In this document: positions 38,861-52,829 of the stretch, in pieces | Layout of the letters: each line of letters starts with the position of its first letter | Numbering within the stretch: position 1 is the first letter of the stretch | Origin: Erysipelotrichaceae bacterium | Lineage (GTDB): Bacteria; Bacillota_I; Bacilli_A; RFN20; CAG-826 | Direction: 5' to 3' | DNA length: 55,881 bases | Assembly: GCA_012837435.1 (NCBI GenBank) | Contig: DURD01000029.1 | Span: 1 to 55,881, forward strand | Made by a program: the position numbers and the translations under genes | The notes under the pieces: generated by a model | Told to the model about the DNA's origin: nothing | Seen by the model: only the letters and a program-made list of their open reading frames with translations | Database searches by the model: none

Positions 38861-39379
38861 TTATCTTGCTGTATATTTTGTTCCTCTTCCACTCCCAATC
38901 TTCTTTACATATCCTAATTCAATTAAAGTTTCGATAAGCTCTAACACTTTATTTTTCCCAAAACCAGTTATTTTCGATAAGGTAGAGCTTGGCAGTTCCT
39001 TATTTTCTAAGGCATTATATATGATATTTTGATTATCCGATAATTCTTCTATCCCAGAAATAACTGGCAAGGTAATTTCTATTGAATTCTCAAATATCTT
39101 AAATAAAGTTTTTTGCTTTCTTGGATAAACTGTTAATTCTATAGTCTTTGTCTCCTCGTCCAGTTTAATTGAATAATATACTTTTGGCACAATAGAATTA
39201 TTAATTTTATTTTCAATGATTAAGGCTGTTTCAGCAATATTGGCTAATCCTTTTATTTTTCCATCATCTGAAACTCCAAAAATTATTCTTGCACCATGAT
39301 AATTTGCAAAGGCAGTAACTATCTTTAAGAATTTGTTTGAAACATTTTCTTTAAATTCTAAATTATGTGTTTCGCGCAT
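38861..39379 (-). pseudogene. AlbA_2/Schlafen-domain protein joined directly to a wHTH (probable internal deletion)
   Basis: LEFKE, AFAN..G..IIFGV.D.G.I.G, then wHTH ending GSGRGTKY; middle domain absent. Confidence 0.6.
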
Positions 39380-39804: not shown

Positions 39805-40656
39805 CTAATTTCGATTGTAACCATTTTCTTTTGTTTTAAATACATCTTTCCAATAATTTTCTCTTTCAATGATTTTATGAGTGTCTGTATTTTTTGGAAA
39901 CGTTTCAATGATTGTATATTCAAAATAATCTTGAAAATATTTATCACCTTTTAAATTATATAGTTCAATCAATGCTTGGTTGCCACCAGTTTTATTATCT
40001 AAGTAATTATTCCACCTTTGTAGAATTCCATCTTTTCCAGAGGCAGATCCAATATAAAATTTTCCTTCTTTAGAGTCGGTTAGACAATAAATACCTTTCA
40101 CACCTTTTAATGCAGCTTTATAGTCTTGATATCTTTCAGTCTCCAAAATCATTTTAAGCGTTGAAAAACTTAAGTGAACATTCTCAAACCCATTAAATTT
40201 AATAGGTTCATATATATTAGGAAGTATTTCTGAAACCTTAACATCGTTAATAATATTTTCCATTTTGAAAATATAACGACCAAAAGTATGTCCCTTGTGG
40301 TAACAAATGATTAGTCTGCCTATTAATCCTTGAAATTGAGGCAATTCGTTGTGCCTACATGGTCCTGGCTTTTCTTTAGGAGGAACATCAATTATTTCTC
40401 CCACAGAAATAAGCAGCCATTTATCTGGATTTCCGTCCAATCTGACAAAGCCGAAGCACCACTCACCCCTGTAAAAATTTTTTCTTCCTGCTTGATGTGA
40501 ATAATAGGTAAAATCAGTGTGACGTTTATTTTCATCACTCTCGTACCATCTTGTGAAATGGGAGATTCCATCCCATGACATATTAAGCCCAATTTTCGAA
40601 TTAGAAATTTGTTCATCGCTTAAATGCAAAATGTCATTTAAAAATAAATCTTTCAT
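39805..40656 (-). CDS. GIY-YIG nuclease family protein
   Basis: GIYCLTD...KFYIGSA, RW..Y, RE..W....T...GYN. Confidence 0.88.
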   Translation of the reverse strand: MKDLFLNDILHLSDEQISNSKIGLNMSWDGISHFTRWYESDENKRHTDFTYYSHQAGRKNFYRGEWCFGFVRLDGNPDKWLLISVGEIIDVPPKEKPGPCRHNELPQFQGLIGRLIICYHKGHTFGRYIFKMENIINDVKVSEILPNIYEPIKFNGFENVHLSFSTLKMILETERYQDYKAALKGVKGIYCLTDSKEGKFYIGSASGKDGILQRWNNYLDNKTGGNQALIELYNLKGDKYFQDYFEYTIIETFPKNTDTHKIIERENYWKDVFKTKENGYNRN

Positions 40657-40874
40657 GAAAGTAGTATAACAAATATATCTTAATTTTAAAGAACTTTTCA
40701 GAAAAAAATGGAAATGTTGCTTGACAGATTAATTGCTACAAATGTCTTTGTTAATCGAATTAATCACAGTTTTGTGACTAATCTTCTTTCTTTATAAGCT
40801 TTCTATCTCGCTAGGCGAAGAAAGAAAGCGAATGATGATATAATTTATTTCCTGCTGCTTAGAAAGGAGTAAAA

Positions 40875-41300
40875 ATGTTAAAGAAAAGATTAGATTATGA
40901 TAATCGAATCAATTTACAAGCAGGAATTGCTAAAGGATATTCGTTAAGAAGAATTGCTGAAACACAATTCGTTAAACCATGTATCGAGAAATCATTAATA
41001 ATTGCTATTACAAGGATCGTCGTCATACATTCGCTCACTGCCAATTAACTTAATCCACATTTAGAAGAACAGGGTTGTTCTTTGAAAACTCACTTCAACA
41101 CGGTTGTTGTAGTGGGTTAGTCACTATTCATTCACAACTCTTTTGTTATAGAAACAATGTATGCAATAACTAATAAAAATGTAAACTTGGTCAAACTGAA
41201 TGCAACAATTTTATAAAACAAATTGCGCAAGAACGAAAACTGTTTTTTGTTGCTTTCACCCTGTCACGCTACAAGTTGCAAATACAACTACATTAGAGCC
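40875..41300 (+). mobile_element. Degraded IS30-family transposase fragment
   Basis: AAAGGAG RBS, MLKKRLDYDNRINLQAGIAKGYSLRRIAE HTH-like start, YREI in a shifted frame, many stops. Confidence 0.5.
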
Positions 41301-41335
41301 ACCAATTACGCTCTTAAAATGATTAATGACAGTTA

Positions 41336-42613
41336 TTAATTTTTAAGTGCGGTAATCGGAACAACATAAACTCCATCGGAGCGCTTATATCCGGCATTTG
41401 ACATGCCGCAAATAACACACATAACGCTAGGAGGAATGCCGCCGGCTTTCGATATAGAGTTATGAATAGAAAGAAGAGAAGAAGCCGCTTCGTCTATTTT
41501 ATTTGCACCTAGTTTGATTTCAAATGCACACCAGTTGCCGTTTTGTAATTCTATCACCGCATCAATTTCTTTGTTATCGTAGCCTTGATAATGATAAAGA
41601 GTTGCACCAAAAGACTCCGAATAAATTTTTAAATCTCGTATGCATAAGGATTCAAATAGAAATCCTAAGGTATTTAAGTCATTGATTAATTTTTCTGGTG
41701 TTAGCTTAAGTAACGCACAAACTAGCGAAGTATCGCAGAAATGTCTCTTTTCGGATTGTTTAACTCGTACAGATGATCTAATGTTGGTTGAAAAAGGTAG
41801 TTGATTATCCAATAAAAACATCCTATCAAAAACATCTAAATATGTAGCGATAGTATCGGTGTCAATAGTTTCGTCATCCACTTCTTTTATGTCTTTTGCC
41901 AAAGTCCTGTTAGTGACAGTTGTACTTTCATTTCTAGCGAGAGAACGTAATAAAAGCAACATTTTATGTTTATCGTACTTCTTACCTTCAACTCTCTGCG
42001 CATCATCTAGTATGGCGTCAATATACGATTCTGCTAATAAATATGAATTTTCGATTGGTGTGTTAATGCTGCTTGGAAATCCACCTCTCAAAATATATTC
42101 CACTAAGTTTTTAAGATCTACATCTCCAGTGATAGACGGAGTTATATTATCATTACACAAGTCTTCAAGAGAAAACTGTCCTAAAGAATCTCCTGATTCA
42201 TATAAAGACATCGTGCGCATCCTAAGTTTAGAAATGCGCCCAGCGCCACTATGTAAGATTCCTTTGGTTATAGGAGTTGACGAACCGGTTAGTATAAACT
42301 GACCTTTTAATGCTCTTTTATCTACTTCATATCGAATGGCATCCCAAATGGCAGGTACTTCTTGCCATTCATCAATTAAGCGAGGAGTTTCTCCTTCTAA
42401 AACCATATCTGGCGAAATATTAGCTAGCTCTCTATTTTGGAAATTATTGGTTGGATCAGCAACAAAAAATTCACTGTTTGAATGATATGATGATGTCCAA
42501 GTTTTTCCACACCATTTAGGTCCCTCAATGCAAACAGCACCAAAAATTTGTAAATGTTTTTTTACAGCCTTATCTATGACTCTAGGCATGTATTTAGTTT
42601 TATCTAAAATCAT
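41336..42613 (-). CDS. AAA ATPase with DUF4143-type/PD-(D/E)xK C-terminus, paralog 1
   Basis: GPKWCGKT, LIDEWQ, ILTGS, RGG.P, FE, EIDAVIE...AFEIK. Confidence 0.9.
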   Translation of the reverse strand: MILDKTKYMPRVIDKAVKKHLQIFGAVCIEGPKWCGKTWTSSYHSNSEFFVADPTNNFQNRELANISPDMVLEGETPRLIDEWQEVPAIWDAIRYEVDKRALKGQFILTGSSTPITKGILHSGAGRISKLRMRTMSLYESGDSLGQFSLEDLCNDNITPSITGDVDLKNLVEYILRGGFPSSINTPIENSYLLAESYIDAILDDAQRVEGKKYDKHKMLLLLRSLARNESTTVTNRTLAKDIKEVDDETIDTDTIATYLDVFDRMFLLDNQLPFSTNIRSSVRVKQSEKRHFCDTSLVCALLKLTPEKLINDLNTLGFLFESLCIRDLKIYSESFGATLYHYQGYDNKEIDAVIELQNGNWCAFEIKLGANKIDEAASSLLSIHNSISKAGGIPPSVMCVICGMSNAGYKRSDGVYVVPITALKN

Positions 42614-42647
42614 TTGAATCTCTCTTTGTCGTTGTGTTTATAGCAAT

Positions 42648-42676
42648 ATGATACATGCATCACGCATGAATTTCAA
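42648..42676 (-). promoter_or_regulatory. Sigma70 promoter of paralog 1
   Basis: TTGAAA-N17-TATCAT. Confidence 0.65.
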
Positions 42677-42681
42677 GCTCG

Positions 42682-42777
42682 TTCGGTCACATTTGTATTT
42701 TTCATTCGGTCATATTTGTATTTTTCATTCGGTCATATTTGTATTTTTCATTCGGTCATATTTGTATATTTCATTCG
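42682..42777. repeat. 23-bp tandem array, 4 copies plus partial (ttcggtcatatttgtatttttca)
   Basis: Units start at 42682, 42705, 42728, 42751; at most one mismatch each. Confidence 0.95.
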
Positions 42778-42944
42778 ATTTATGTAGCAGTCAAGCGAAA
42801 TGGACACAAAAAAGTATTTGTGTATTTAAATTATTTTTGAAAATGGAAAAAACTATTTTGTTAGATACACATTAAAAGAAACATATGATAACAACATCTG
42901 TCCCTATTAAAAACCTAAAACATTTATTTTTATGCAACGAAATT

Positions 42945-44240
42945 TTAGTCCTTTAAAGAAGTGATAGGAATAATGTAAACTCCATCAGTGTTTTTGTATG
43001 CCATGTTTCCAACACCATATATCACGCATTTCAACAACGGCTCTTTACCCCCATTATTAACTACATCTTGACAAACTTTAATCAAATTACTAGCGCCTTC
43101 TTCTGCTTTGTTAAGTCCTAGTTTTATTTCAAAAGCACACCAGTTTCCATCATCCAATTCAATGACAGCATCAATTTCGTTTCCTTTATAATCTTGATAA
43201 TGAAACAATTTTGCATTCATAGCCTGCGCATATATCGATAAATCTCTTTCAACTAGTGCTTCAAACATAAAACTGAAAGTTTTTAAATCATTCATCATTT
43301 TTTTAGGAGTTAGCTTCAGCAGTGCACACGCCATTGCAGGATCGGAAAAATGTCTTTTTTCCATTTGCTTTACTCTCAGCGATGACCTTATACTTGGCGA
43401 AAAGGGTTCTTGATTATTGAATAAAAACATCCTGTCAAACGCATTCAAGTATTTGGTTAGTGTATTTTTGCTAATAGACTCGACATCATTTTCAATAATA
43501 TCTCTTAAAATACTTTGGTTGGAGACCGTTGTTGCTTCATTTCTAGCTAATGATTTTAAAATTAACTTTGCTTTATGTTCGTTATAATCGATATCTTTAT
43601 CAAGCTCACCTAAGTCTAATTTTGCTACGTTTTCCATATAACTAATGGCAAGATTGCCACCGTCTAATTCAGAGGTTTCAATATTACCGGGCCAACCACC
43701 TCGCACTATCAGATATGCTAATCTACTAAGGCTTGTTTCTTCTAAAAGTTTTGATTCAAATTTGTTTTCACACAAGTCTTTTAAAGATATCAGACCACTA
43801 GAATCCCCTGATTCATACAAGGACATGGTATTCATTCTAATACTTTTAATTCTACCTGTGCCACTGTGTAAAACACCTTTCTTTATAGGAGTTGATGAGC
43901 CAGTCAAAATAATCTGTCCTTTTTTGCCACTTTCATCCACAAAAAAGCGTACCGCATCCCATAGTGATGGAACTTCTTGCCACTCATCAATTAATCGAGG
44001 AGTGTCTCCCTGTAACACCGTATAAGGTTCTGTTTCCGCTAACATCCTGTTGGAAAAATTACCTTCGGGATTCCCAACAAAAAACGCACTTCTCGCATGG
44101 TATAAAGATGTCCATGTTTTACCACACCATTTGGGTCCTTCAATACATAACGCACCAAATATTCTTAAATTTTTTTCAATCAAAGAATCAACTATTCTCG
44201 GCTTATAATTGGATTTATTCAAAACTCTATCCATATACAT
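42945..44240 (-). CDS. AAA ATPase with DUF4143-type/PD-(D/E)xK C-terminus, paralog 2
   Basis: Same motifs as paralog 1; start probably ATG 44240 (GAGG RBS). Confidence 0.9.
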   Translation of the reverse strand: MYMDRVLNKSNYKPRIVDSLIEKNLRIFGALCIEGPKWCGKTWTSLYHARSAFFVGNPEGNFSNRMLAETEPYTVLQGDTPRLIDEWQEVPSLWDAVRFFVDESGKKGQIILTGSSTPIKKGVLHSGTGRIKSIRMNTMSLYESGDSSGLISLKDLCENKFESKLLEETSLSRLAYLIVRGGWPGNIETSELDGGNLAISYMENVAKLDLGELDKDIDYNEHKAKLILKSLARNEATTVSNQSILRDIIENDVESISKNTLTKYLNAFDRMFLFNNQEPFSPSIRSSLRVKQMEKRHFSDPAMACALLKLTPKKMMNDLKTFSFMFEALVERDLSIYAQAMNAKLFHYQDYKGNEIDAVIELDDGNWCAFEIKLGLNKAEEGASNLIKVCQDVVNNGGKEPLLKCVIYGVGNMAYKNTDGVYIIPITSLKD

Positions 44241-44264
44241 AGAACCTCTCAAAAATACAAGCGT

Positions 44265-44293
44265 ATAATATCATAAAGATAAATGCCTTTCAA
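44265..44293 (-). promoter_or_regulatory. Sigma70 promoter of paralog 2
   Basis: TTGAAA-N17-TATTAT with TGn extension. Confidence 0.65.
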
Positions 44294-44296
44294 TGC

Positions 44297-44358
44297 AACT
44301 GACCAACATTTTGTGTTTTAACTGACCAACATTTTGTGTTTTAACTGACCAACATTTT
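44297..44358. repeat. 23-bp tandem array, about 2.7 copies (aactgaccaacattttgtgtttt)
   Basis: Units start at 44297, 44320, 44343 (last partial). Confidence 0.93.
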
Positions 44359-44987
44359 TGATTATGCGCCTGTCAACTTGTACTCATCAATAAAAATGGA
44401 TGTAACAGTTAAGCAAAGTGAAAACAAAAATTTTTTATTTGTAGACATATTACGTCATTTTCCTACAAAACTATTCTGTCAAATGCGTTTGATAAATTTA
44501 AAAGTCAATTTTACGGTAACATCATTTAAGTAACACAAACCCAATTAACTATAAATCCAAACTATTTTCATCAAGTAAAAAGATTAATCTTCTCATGGTT
44601 GTCATCCTAAGTCGTTGCGACGAGGTTTTATGTTTTCTTTCACAACTATTATTTTTTTGAATGAATCATTTATACTCAAAAACGGTCTTCGTTCTTGCAT
44701 AATTTTCTCTTTAGTCGGCATTGCAAATACTAATTGAATATAATATTTTTTACTACCCAAGGTAGCAACAAAAACAACTTCTGGTTATAACCTTAAGTAA
44801 GCCGTTGCCCTGTTTGTTTATTAATTTTTTTGTAAATAAGTATTTATTTTGATTTCCATCAGCTTGCTCTATTACGAATTTAGATGTATTGCCATCTTTT
44901 TTCGCAATAAGTCTACTATTTTATAACTTGAACATCGTTAAGATGGAAAAGAATCACAAAATTTGTATCAAAAGTCTAGTTATGATA

Positions 44988-45064
44988 TGGTCGGGACGAC
45001 AGGATTTGAACCTGCGACCTTCAGTTCCCAAAACTGACGCGATACCAAGCTACGCTACGTCCCG
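44988..45064 (-). tRNA. tRNA-Pro(TGG)
   Basis: CGGGACG/CGTCCCG stem, TTTGGGA loop, CCA. Confidence 0.95.
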
Positions 45065-45065
45065 A

Positions 45066-45142
45066 TGGCGCGCCTCACAAGAATCGAACTCGTAACCTCC
45101 AGATTCGTAGTCTGACACTCTATCCAGTTGAGCTAGAGGCGC
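45066..45142 (-). tRNA. tRNA-Arg(ACG)
   Basis: GCGCCTC/GAGGCGC stem, CTACGAA loop, CCA. Confidence 0.95.
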
Positions 45143-45190
45143 ATAGATGCTGATTTAGGTCCAAGTTTAATTTAACTAGGACCAGAAAGA

Positions 45191-45265
45191 TGGAGGTTCC
45201 TAACGGATTCGAACCGATGATCATTGAGTTGCAGTCAATTGCCTTACCAACTTGGCTAAGGAACC
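45191..45265 (-). tRNA. tRNA-Cys(GCA)
   Basis: GGTTCCT/AGGAACC stem, CTGCAAC loop, CCA. Confidence 0.95.
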
Positions 45266-52100: not shown

Positions 52101-52829
52101 ATGTCTAAAAAAGTTAAAGCTAAAAAAGTTAAAGCTAAAAAAGTTAAAAAAACTGAAAGATTTAAAAAAGTTAAAGCTCTGTGGAGCGAATTTAAAGAAT
52201 TTATTAATCGCGGTAACGCCTTTATGCTCGCCGTCGGTGTAGTAATTGGTGGAGCCTTCAACGCAATAGTTACATCATTTGTTAATATGTTGTTAAGCAT
52301 TGCCACTTGGCCAGTTCCCGGTGGTTTAAAAGGTTTTGTCACAGTTTTACCAGCGCTGACCAATGCTCAAAAAGGTGCGGCCTTTGAAATCGATGGAAGA
52401 ATCGTTAATCTACAGTCGTTTACTATGGCACAAGCCAATGAAAGAGTAATTCAATTTGCCAAAGCACAAAACAAGGTGTTGACCATTGATAGTCCAGATT
52501 TCATTCATTGGAAAAATTCATTGCTCAGTTTATACAATCAATATGGGACAACTTTTACTTCTAAAGCCTGCGCGGTTATCGATTGGGGAGCTTTATTAAC
52601 ATCTTTAATCAGTTTCTTGATTATTGCTATTGTTTTATTTATCATCGTTAAAGCCATCAATACCGCGGCCAGAAAAAAAGCTGAACTCGAAGCAAAAGCT
52701 CTAGAACAATATTACGAAAAACATCCAGAAAAAAGACCAGTGGTCCAAGATCCAAGTTTACCAGAACCCACAGAACTCGATTATTTAAAACGCATTACTG
52801 AACTTCTCGAGAAAAAAGAGTCAGAATAA
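52101..52829 (+). CDS. mscL: Large-conductance mechanosensitive channel, extended form
   Basis: EFKEF..RGNA..LAVGVVIGGAF..IV.S.V, G.....I.FLII, L..I.ELL; start ATG 52101. Confidence 0.85.
   Translation: MSKKVKAKKVKAKKVKKTERFKKVKALWSEFKEFINRGNAFMLAVGVVIGGAFNAIVTSFVNMLLSIATWPVPGGLKGFVTVLPALTNAQKGAAFEIDGRIVNLQSFTMAQANERVIQFAKAQNKVLTIDSPDFIHWKNSLLSLYNQYGTTFTSKACAVIDWGALLTSLISFLIIAIVLFIIVKAINTAARKKAELEAKALEQYYEKHPEKRPVVQDPSLPEPTELDYLKRITELLEKKESE
52105..52178 (+). repeat. 15-bp coding tandem repeat (KKVKA) at the mscL N-terminus
   Basis: ctaaaaaagttaaag about x3, plus a separated fourth copy. Confidence 0.85.

Follow-up and report, generated by a model that had tools for sequence, protein, structure and literature searches.

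Clade-specific tandem repeat arrays upstream of PDC-S01 (AAA_14-DUF4143) ATPase-nuclease genes as probable operators of their own gene products

Among the AAA+ initiators, archaeal Orc1/Cdc6 with its origin recognition (ORB) boxes and DnaA with its DnaA boxes and the datA sink carry repeat arrays beside their own genes. Iteron plasmids (Rep, with iterons of about 22 bp), ParR-parC and omega-type repressors use small winged-helix or ribbon-helix-helix binders on replicons, and they show cooperative binding, autorepression and private specificities, as in plasmid incompatibility. In type III toxin-antitoxin systems (ToxIN) the repeats are located between the promoter and the toxin gene, where they are transcribed, folded and followed by a terminator. 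The present work deals with two paralogous genes of an Erysipelotrichaceae bacterium, named here gene A and gene B, which encode putative ATPase-nucleases and are each preceded by their own array of 23-bp tandem repeats. Both are found in contig DURD01000029.1 (assembly GCA_012837435.1), and the 55,881 nucleotides of this stretch are referred to as the window.

The closest described relative of the window proteins is PDC-S01, a candidate defence system of PADLOC. Both proteins match its model (PDLC04790) from end to end, the gene A product with residues 7-423 of 425 on positions 10-417 of 422 (E = 3e-60) and the gene B product with E = 4e-51, and they share the make-up of ATPase plus PD-(D/E)xK nuclease given in the available text of PMC12988326. 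That text ranks PDC-S01 as the fourth most common defence candidate across prokaryotes and describes it as an ATPase fused to PD-(D/E)xK that is not validated; according to the accessible part of PMC13356809, it is the most frequent single locus in one rumen survey. According to bioRxiv 10.1101/2024.09.26.614923, four of eight candidates gave E. coli B protection from T7, T5 or T4, and the PDC-S01 representative was not one of them. The main text of the PADLOC candidate preprint does not name PDC-S01, and its supplements may hold more. As regards the literature on DUF4143, PDC-S01 and COG1373, the passages covered here, taken without supplements, deal with the protein and its abundance and say nothing of an upstream repeat array, of DNA binding with sequence specificity or of autoregulation. 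The family and its standing as a defence candidate were already known, and these passages contain neither the array nor its fixed period in each clade, the way it lies over the promoter or the co-variation of its units with three residues of the predicted recognition helix. We consider it probable, with some reserve, that the array is a self-binding, autoregulatory tandem operator in an insulated cassette of the form array-promoter-gene(-terminator).

A sequence-only reading of the window had proposed two AAA_14 + DUF4143 paralogs ending in a PD-(D/E)xK-like motif, with two 23-bp arrays of differing sequence and a common layout (array, 3-5 bp, TTGAAA-N17-(-10), gene), and all of this was borne out. 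Gene A (41336..42613, minus strand) encodes a 425-amino-acid protein composed of AAA_14, a winged helix and DUF4143 (PD-(D/E)xK). Gene B (42945..44240, minus strand) is its paralog with the same domains, and the two are 56% identical along their entire length. The start of gene B is more likely ATG 44240 or 44234 than the TTG at 44252 given in the open reading frame (ORF) list, because a GAGAGG ribosome-binding site is present in the sequence. Array A (42682..42777, minus strand) consists of 4.2 head-to-tail copies of a 23-bp unit (Tandem Repeats Finder (TRF) score 178, 97% matches; TGAAAAATACAAATATGACCGAA on the gene strand, core GACCGAATG), and array B (44297..44358, minus strand) of 2.7 copies of 23 bp (score 124, 100% matches; AAAACACAAAATGTTGGTCAGTT on the gene strand, core TGGTCAGTT). 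They are the top two of the 42 TRF rows of the window, where the third-ranked score is 88; this third repeat, a perfect 15 bp x 2.9 at 52105-52148, overlaps ORFs on both strands. Between array and gene stand the promoters TTGAAA-17-TATCAT of gene A (42648..42676, minus strand; 10/12 consensus matches, joint best in 41200-44700), with the -35 box 5 bp from the array, and TTGAAA-17-TATTAT of gene B (44265..44293, minus strand; 10/12 matches, TG before the -10 box), with the -35 box 3 bp from the array. These are the top two promoter-like sites in the scan of 41200-44700; the total of such sites in that region was 10, not above shuffles (mean 15.3). On the other hand, the earlier opposition of GGTCA in one core to its reverse complement TGACC in the other turned out to have no special meaning, since GACCGAATG and TGGTCAGTT are just two of several core classes and have the same orientation once the units are aligned in phase. 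The core class of array B is also present in its nearest homologues (L090, L097, L101, L083).

Analysis with Pfam gave only AAA_14 (49.3 and 48.8 bits, cut-off 27; E = 6e-13 for gene A) followed by DUF4143 (108.9 and 95.1 bits, cut-off 28.1; E = 3e-31 for gene A) in the two window proteins, and no Rep, Par or transposase domain. NCBIfam offered no family for them, and a sequence search of the PDB matched no chain. Among the catalytic motifs, G36 and K37 of Walker A, D81 and E82 of Walker B and the nuclease pair D351 and E365 are invariant in the five paralogs of the genome and in a 50-sequence alignment; K367 is invariant in the paralogs and at least 90% conserved in the alignment, and the nuclease motif reads EIDAVIEL...FEIKLG in both window proteins. 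An AlphaFold model (pLDDT, the predicted local distance difference test, 92; pTM, the predicted template modelling (TM) score, 0.91) shows an AAA+ core (residues 1-210), a helical lid, a winged helix (215-290) and a C-terminal nuclease domain. The winged helix comprises helices 215-227, 235-246 and 252-264 followed by a beta wing, so that 235-246 / 252-264 form a helix-turn-helix, and residues 251-253 stand at the N-terminus of the predicted recognition helix 252-264.

Structural comparison of this model with Foldseek returned distant neighbours only (E from 1e-5 to 1e-3). The best of them are the archaeal ATPases PABY2304 (2qen) and SSO1545 (2fna), with query TM scores (TMq) of 0.44 and 0.40 and E = 1e-5, followed among others by the STAND NTPases NRC3, Avs5 and Apaf-1, by Orc1/Cdc6 on origin DNA (2qby), by DnaA (3r8f) and by clamp loaders; the matches to 2qby and 3r8f are weak (TM 0.22-0.28, E from 3e-5 to 1e-4). 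Cdn1 and Card1, near the top of the list, presumably match the nuclease part. The likeness to 2qen, 2fna and the STAND NTPases (Avs, NLR) is thus one of structural neighbourhood, whereas there is no sequence-level PDB match and PDC-S01 lacks a sensor repeat domain. To our knowledge, no cognate DNA array is known for any of these proteins.

The arrays are not peculiar to the window. The source genome (1.125 Mb, 44 contigs, about 34% GC, the window being contig C17) has five DUF4143 genes on four contigs, and all five have direct repeats upstream, with periods of 23, 23, 23, 34 and 32 bp and unrelated sequences. Genome-wide TRF yielded 183 rows, 74 of them with a period of at least 15 and at least 1.9 copies; among the periods that are not a multiple of three, the four highest-scoring repeats of the genome (178, 146, 133 and 124) are DUF4143 arrays and the next scores 82, while the fifth DUF4143 gene is preceded by a two-copy 32-bp repeat. 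The units seem to be private to their genes: none of the five occurs elsewhere in the assembly at up to 3 mismatches, and that of array A has no other occurrence at up to 4. Allowing 4 mismatches adds genome matches, 12 in number and presumably by chance, for one unit only, the short 20-nt one of the gene on contig C13. At residue 253 the clade-A paralogs of the source genome, three in number (the clades are defined below), carry D, N and K, with the cores GACCGAATG, TGGTCAGTT and ATGGAATG.

Close homologues of gene A show the same arrangement. A scan of species-representative genomes gave 80 loci with proteins 52-84% identical to gene A, spanning Clostridia, Bacilli, Spirochaetes, Fibrobacter, Kiritimatiellia, Desulfovibrionaceae, Akkermansia, Bacteroides and Comamonas. 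Genes were dropped before counting if they had less than 150-200 bp upstream, an N-terminal truncation (profile start above 30-40) or a product shorter than 330-380 amino acids. For the TRF test, the 310 bp before the start were examined in 85 DUF4143 genes with at least 150 bp upstream: a repeat was present in 62, with a period of 23, 46 or 69 in 60 of them, and the other 396 kb of the homologue loci held 3 period-23 repeats. When the gene model was broadened, the 80 loci held 66 arrays of period 22-24, 46 or 69, of which 62 adjoin a DUF4143 start; the four exceptions are L066 (after a stop codon, near the contig end), L083 (an orphan), L093 and L114. Furthermore, the best self-match lag between 8 and 60 bp was 23 or 46 upstream of 79/82 genome-contig homologues and in 5/75 of the 300-bp stretches downstream of the same genes. 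An independent metagenome scan (80 loci, 40-71% identity) gave lag 23 or 46 in 66 of the 72 genes analysed. The peak at 22-23 bp that the sequence-only reading had expected upstream of homologues is therefore there.

The orphan array (L083:977-1038) has three good units and some degenerate ones, followed by a terminator-like hairpin and a convergent ORF without a DUF4143 gene; it may have been left behind by a cassette that was lost, or may be a binding site in its own right. In L035, L047, L063, L076, L079 and others, as well as at the C15 gene of the source genome, two or three unit variants alternate in a super-period of 46 (or 69) bp, which might reflect protomers binding in pairs.

To compare the units, arrays with a self-match below 16-17 of 23 were excluded, which kept 66/82, and L069 was removed as a poly-A artefact. 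The 65 remaining arrays, aligned in phase, define the clade-A unit t-a-A-A-A-A-T-c-T-n-n-C-S-G-A-W-T-G-a-a-a-t-t, with two conserved blocks, AAAAT (positions 3-7) and CSGAWTG (positions 12-18). Array A is in phase with this consensus. The orientation of the unit relative to the gene is constant in all 65 arrays, which have a median of 4.1 units (range 2.8-7.1).

The promoter is phased with these units. In 36/65 arrays the start of the best sigma-70 -35 box falls on unit position 22, and in 10 more on position 23 or 1, where chance would give about 3 arrays per unit position. This concentration indicates that in most clade-A loci the promoter is the last unit itself: the -35 box lies over one unit boundary, the conserved blocks make up the 17-bp spacer and the -10 box lies over the next boundary, a fit expressed by 23 = 6 + 17. 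The sites thus cover the core promoter in most clade-A arrays. In the two window genes and their nearest relatives the array abuts the -35 box instead, and the promoter falls on one further, degenerate unit. Clade B follows the same promoter logic with another unit, a conserved block of about 20 nt that starts with a -35-like TTGCRT and is followed by some 10-12 variable bases; the conserved block of the last unit is followed by the -10 box, and the C29 gene of the source genome, for instance, has TTGCGT-N17-TAAAAT on its last unit. The clade-B period may be read as the clade-A period plus about one helical turn.

The evidence that ties the arrays to the protein comes from co-variation. Corrected mutual information was calculated between the 425 columns of the protein alignment and the unit positions, first with the 65 arrays and then with a combined set (n = 124) to which 59 of the 72 metagenome arrays were added. 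In the first set, residues 253, 252 and 251 ranked highest against the core, and in the combined set residues 252, 253 and 251 were the top three of the 425 columns. Residue 252 ranks first for unit positions 10, 11 and 13. For positions 12-16, residue 253 holds ranks 1, 2, 3, 1 and 4, as against about 390-425 outside the core, the signal of residues 251-253 being confined to core positions 10-16. Relatedness in general would not yield such a position-specific pattern. Unit position 7 has among its best partners residues 273 and 285 of the predicted wing, together with residue 293, which directly follows the wing. In the first set, D at residue 253 goes with the core aCC/CGGAAT (20/26), E with tCGGrTT (T at position 16 in 16/16), N with T at position 13 (CTGAAT and GGTCAGTT; 12/12) and K with a base other than C at position 12 (4/4).

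These associations were also examined with tree-corrected sign tests on independent pairs. In the first set, for which the tree left out the helix-turn-helix columns, E253 had about 5 same and 0 opposite among 6 pairs (median p 0.06), and N253 had 3 and 0 among 4. In the combined set, E253 against T16 gave 4.9 same and 0.2 opposite of 9 pairs (median p 0.06), D253 5.2 and 0.1 of 10 (p 0.06), and N253 against T13 3.0 and 1.3 of 8, which is not significant. A contrast test on 29 independent pairs put residue 252 at the head of 284 columns for change at positions 12-13 (Fisher p 1.3e-4; about 0.04 corrected). The co-variation of repeat and protein that had been predicted is therefore found, concentrated at residues 251-253, with the tree-corrected sign tests staying short of 0.05 in the median. 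Taken together, these comparisons are good evidence that the core of the array is read by the winged helix of its own gene product, though they do not amount to a proven code.

The distribution of the arrays within the wider family was studied in every full-length match from 41 related genomes (101 unique genes), counting as an array a direct repeat with z >= 5 against shuffles; 29/41 genomes of the order of the source genome have DUF4143, with up to 26 matches in a 1.8-Mb genome. Upstream repeats were found in 38/101 genes and downstream repeats in 2/94 (lags 23 and 33), and these two are probably the arrays of the following gene. A FastTree phylogeny divides the 101 genes into clade A (16 genes, 13 with an array, lag 23 or 46 bp), clade B (34 genes, 22 with an array, lag 32-34 or 63-66 bp), clade C (proteins of about 410 amino acids; 12 genes, no array and no lag), clade D (37 genes, 3 with an array, lags 33, 41 and 64 bp) and two long-branch genes with neither array nor lag. 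Among the clade-A genes scored without an array, L018 retains two degenerate units 23 bp apart, and L021 (estimated start 864), whose N-terminal frame runs into unrelated upstream sequence, is probably a rearranged or disrupted copy. Hence, the proposal of a protein with a cognate array of diverging specificity holds for clades A (23 bp) and B (32-34 bp), and it does not extend to the family as a whole.

Outside this order, five genomes of other phyla (Akkermansia, Fibrobacter, Desulfovibrionaceae, Spirochaetaceae and Bacteroides) had arrays in 13 of the 26 genes analysed, with lags of 23 or 46 bp in A-like genes, 32-33 bp in B-like genes and 70, 32, 34 or 23 bp in a few C-like ones. The generality of the pattern is claimed for the sampled bacteria, the sample containing no archaeal loci. 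The expansion of the family is uneven: G024 has 26 DUF4143 matches in 1.8 Mb and G041, a metagenome-assembled genome of Bacteroides uniformis, 36 in 2.0 Mb, and same-genus relatives of such rich genomes may have none, as in G003 (92% complete, 0 matches).

Genes without arrays showed an inverted repeat (z >= 3) in only 7/63 cases. Three clade-C genes from different genomes (L010, L012 and L013) have a common GGAnTTGAACTCC-like palindrome (GGAGTTGAACTCC or TGGAATTGAACTCCA) about 30-60 bp upstream, near promoters, and L006 and L007 share another upstream motif, distinct from it. These are hints that the array-less clades use another type of operator.

Array and gene are inherited together. Related genes occupy unrelated contexts, and their nucleotide homology runs from about 76-169 bp upstream, where the array lies, to the stop codon or at most 62 bp beyond it. 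This restriction to the cassette is clean in 10 of 14 pairs, for which 2-kb flanks were usually available on both sides; among the others, one pair has homology inside the gene and three, involving the window tandem genes, also align through the neighbouring paralog. In the closest pair, L042/L045 (92% identical), the common block comprises array, promoter and gene together with an upstream hairpin and a Rho-independent terminator. A cassette of about 1.5 kb, made up of array, promoter, gene and terminator, travels as one piece. Phage records contain homologues too, in 7 of 50,697, all of them metagenomic 'Bacteriophage sp.' entries. The number of units is labile, since L115, L116 and L019, from three genomes and with proteins at least 99.1% identical, have 4, 3 and 3 units.

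Regarding this data, the arrays of clades A and B would be tandem operators with 3-7 sites in head-to-tail order. A site would recur every 23 bp in clade A, and in clade B it would be extended by about 10 bp to 32-34 bp. They would be read by the winged-helix domain of the AAA+/STAND-like ATPase-nuclease of the same cassette, with the start of the recognition helix (residues 251-253) on the variable core (unit positions 10-16) and the wing probably on the AAAAT block. Side-by-side protomers would reach onto the core promoter, whose -35 and -10 boxes sit at unit boundaries, and the protein would then repress, or at least set, its own transcription in a cooperative, threshold-like manner. Because the cores differ within one genome, its paralogs should not cross-talk. 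Three functions had been suggested for the array beforehand, namely autoregulation, a DNA sink restraining a nuclease, and a defence or mobility system, and an array that overlaps or abuts the core promoter favours the first. Repression is likelier where the conserved blocks fill the promoter spacer, and activation may apply at the two window genes, where the arrays abut the -35 box. Physical binding of the protein to the array, its cooperativity and the choice of repression over activation are what we infer from these patterns, and so is any part that the ATPase, the nuclease or phage defence would play.

Several points speak against this autoregulatory operator. The median of the tree-corrected sign tests for the single-residue rules never reaches 0.05, which leaves these rules suggestive, and the metagenome set has exceptions to them. 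The unit phases were fitted to a common profile, which may inflate the apparent conservation of the core. Clades C and D are mostly without arrays (0/12 and 3/37), so arrays are not required for the core activity of the family. Finally, the window arrays stop 3-5 bp short of the -35 box, a position that would also suit activators and UP elements, and the spacer of their promoters can pass at most for a degenerate unit.

The working principle of the autoregulatory operator would resemble, by analogy, that of the iteron/Rep, ParR-parC and DnaA/Orc systems. With Orc1/Cdc6 and DnaA, the window proteins may share the order of an AAA+ domain and a predicted (winged) helix-turn-helix, the fold matches being weak, and they too have several phased sites beside their own gene, autoregulation being plausible; they differ in that PDC-S01 adds a C-terminal nuclease and has several paralogs per genome with private arrays of fixed-period, head-to-tail units, and nothing points to a function at an origin. 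A bolder version, which we offer only tentatively, is that the clade-A and clade-B PDC-S01 proteins are sequence-programmed AAA+ nucleases that polymerise head to tail on a private DNA track, one protomer per 23 bp or, with a further helical turn, per 33 bp, and that the resulting DnaA/Orc-like filament is at once the promoter switch and the safe resting state of a defence nuclease. The 251-253 code would then be readable, and self-recognition may underlie the spread across phyla.

Another use of the same binding is that the array serves as an assembly or parking platform, where the ATPase-nuclease is stored as an inactive DNA-bound oligomer and set free or activated by a trigger, with promoter control as a by-product. 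The datA locus, which titrates DnaA, provides a precedent. This is compatible with the operator and draws on the same evidence of cognate binding, that is, the co-variation; the sites (median 4.1, up to 7.1) exceed the need of simple repression, the nuclease and Walker motifs are intact, the fold neighbours are oligomerising AAA+/STAND proteins and the array at L083 has no gene of its own. Nevertheless, an array of 3-7 sites would accommodate only a handful of protomers in each cell, its being strictly in phase with the -35 and -10 boxes suggests a role in transcription, and the array-less clades retain the same domains, so storage as the main function appears rather unlikely to us.

It is improbable that the repeats are a promoter architecture independent of the protein, whether as curved DNA or UP elements formed by phased A-tracts or as a contingency locus prone to slippage, in which expression would vary with the number of units. 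The units are indeed A-rich, with AAAAT and GAAAA blocks, the window arrays are at the position of an UP element, and 3 versus 4 units between proteins at least 99.1% identical would suit slippage. However, this would leave unexplained the co-variation of the core with residues 251-253, the period of 23 in one protein clade and 32-34 in another, and the near-confinement of the arrays to DUF4143 starts (62 of 66).

An iteron-like origin or a cassette mobility site, with the AAA+-nuclease as initiator or recombination enzyme, is slightly less probable still. Like the iteron, ParR-parC and omega systems, the locus has direct repeats about two helical turns apart by the promoter of the gene of a putative binder, and the predicted fold of the product bears a weak resemblance to Orc1/Cdc6 and DnaA. 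The cassette alone is common to unrelated genomic contexts, proteins 52-84% identical occur across many phyla, homologues are present on 211 of 72,556 plasmid records, and the window locus adjoins a tRNA cluster. Unlike those systems, the product is a 425-amino-acid ATPase-nuclease in chromosomal cassettes, with no Rep or Par domain (nor a transposase domain) by Pfam; and where an iteron replicon has a Rep initiator and one origin per replicon, there are five array-gene pairs on four contigs of one 1.1-Mb chromosome, and up to 26-36 DUF4143 matches in some small genomes. Several copies per genome argue against an origin role of PDC-S01. Moreover, repeats flank the gene on a single side, the ends of L042/L045, the one pair read for this, showed neither terminal inverted repeats nor duplicated target sites, although no systematic search was made, and homology that stops at the gene borders is also expected from the ordinary divergence of neutral flanks.

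Least probable is an RNA-level system in which, as ToxI RNA inhibits ToxN, the repeats are transcribed and processed to small RNAs that inhibit the nuclease: a short tandem array directly upstream of a putative toxic nuclease, a candidate abortive-infection gene in a defence context, and a weak promoter-like site (9/12) upstream of array B (44390-44361) would suit it, but the strongest promoters are on or after the last unit, the scan of the window region found no terminator-like site between array and gene, the array RNA lacks structure, its minimum free energies of 0 and -2.2 kcal/mol being no lower than those of shuffled sequences (z +1.1 and +2.4), the protein has a DNA-type PD-(D/E)xK nuclease and a winged helix rather than a ToxN/AbiQ RNase, and the co-variation falls on a DNA-reading helix.

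As for the surroundings of the gene pair, three tRNA genes (44991..45265, minus strand; Rfam, 59-68 bits) lie directly upstream of array B, and a GIY-YIG-domain gene (39805-40656, minus strand) and an SLFN_AlbA_2 gene (38861-39379, minus strand), both assigned by Pfam and regarded as neighbours only, lie downstream. The GIY-YIG and Schlafen/AlbA_2 genes are of kinds common in variable or defence islands. The pair between them and the tRNA genes looks like a small variable island, and transporter and metabolic genes of an ordinary kind surround the whole stretch. The two intervals that flank the pair, 40657-41335 and 44359-44990 (about 0.6-0.7 kb each), contain no ORF of at least 60 amino acids and no Rfam match at E <= 1, and on the arrays themselves Rfam gave no match either, only the nearby tRNAs. 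Regarding expression, an identical 210-nt metatranscriptome contig spans 44036-44245, within gene B, and ends before the array; contigs of this kind cannot show RNA starts. The search behind it found only two metatranscriptome runs, with 0.05 and 0.00 of the sampled words, and the contigs were for the most part diverged and came from relatives.

For a large part of the abundant and uncharacterised PDC-S01 family, the autoregulatory operator would supply a first testable molecular property, a predicted sequence-specific winged helix together with its private operator. A gene cloned without its array, or under a foreign promoter, would lose its own control, and this may explain failed heterologous tests. 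The paralogs and homologues with their different cores would also offer a natural set of mutually orthogonal protein-operator pairs. If the 251-253 code is true, the specificity of these proteins would be predictable and could be re-assigned.

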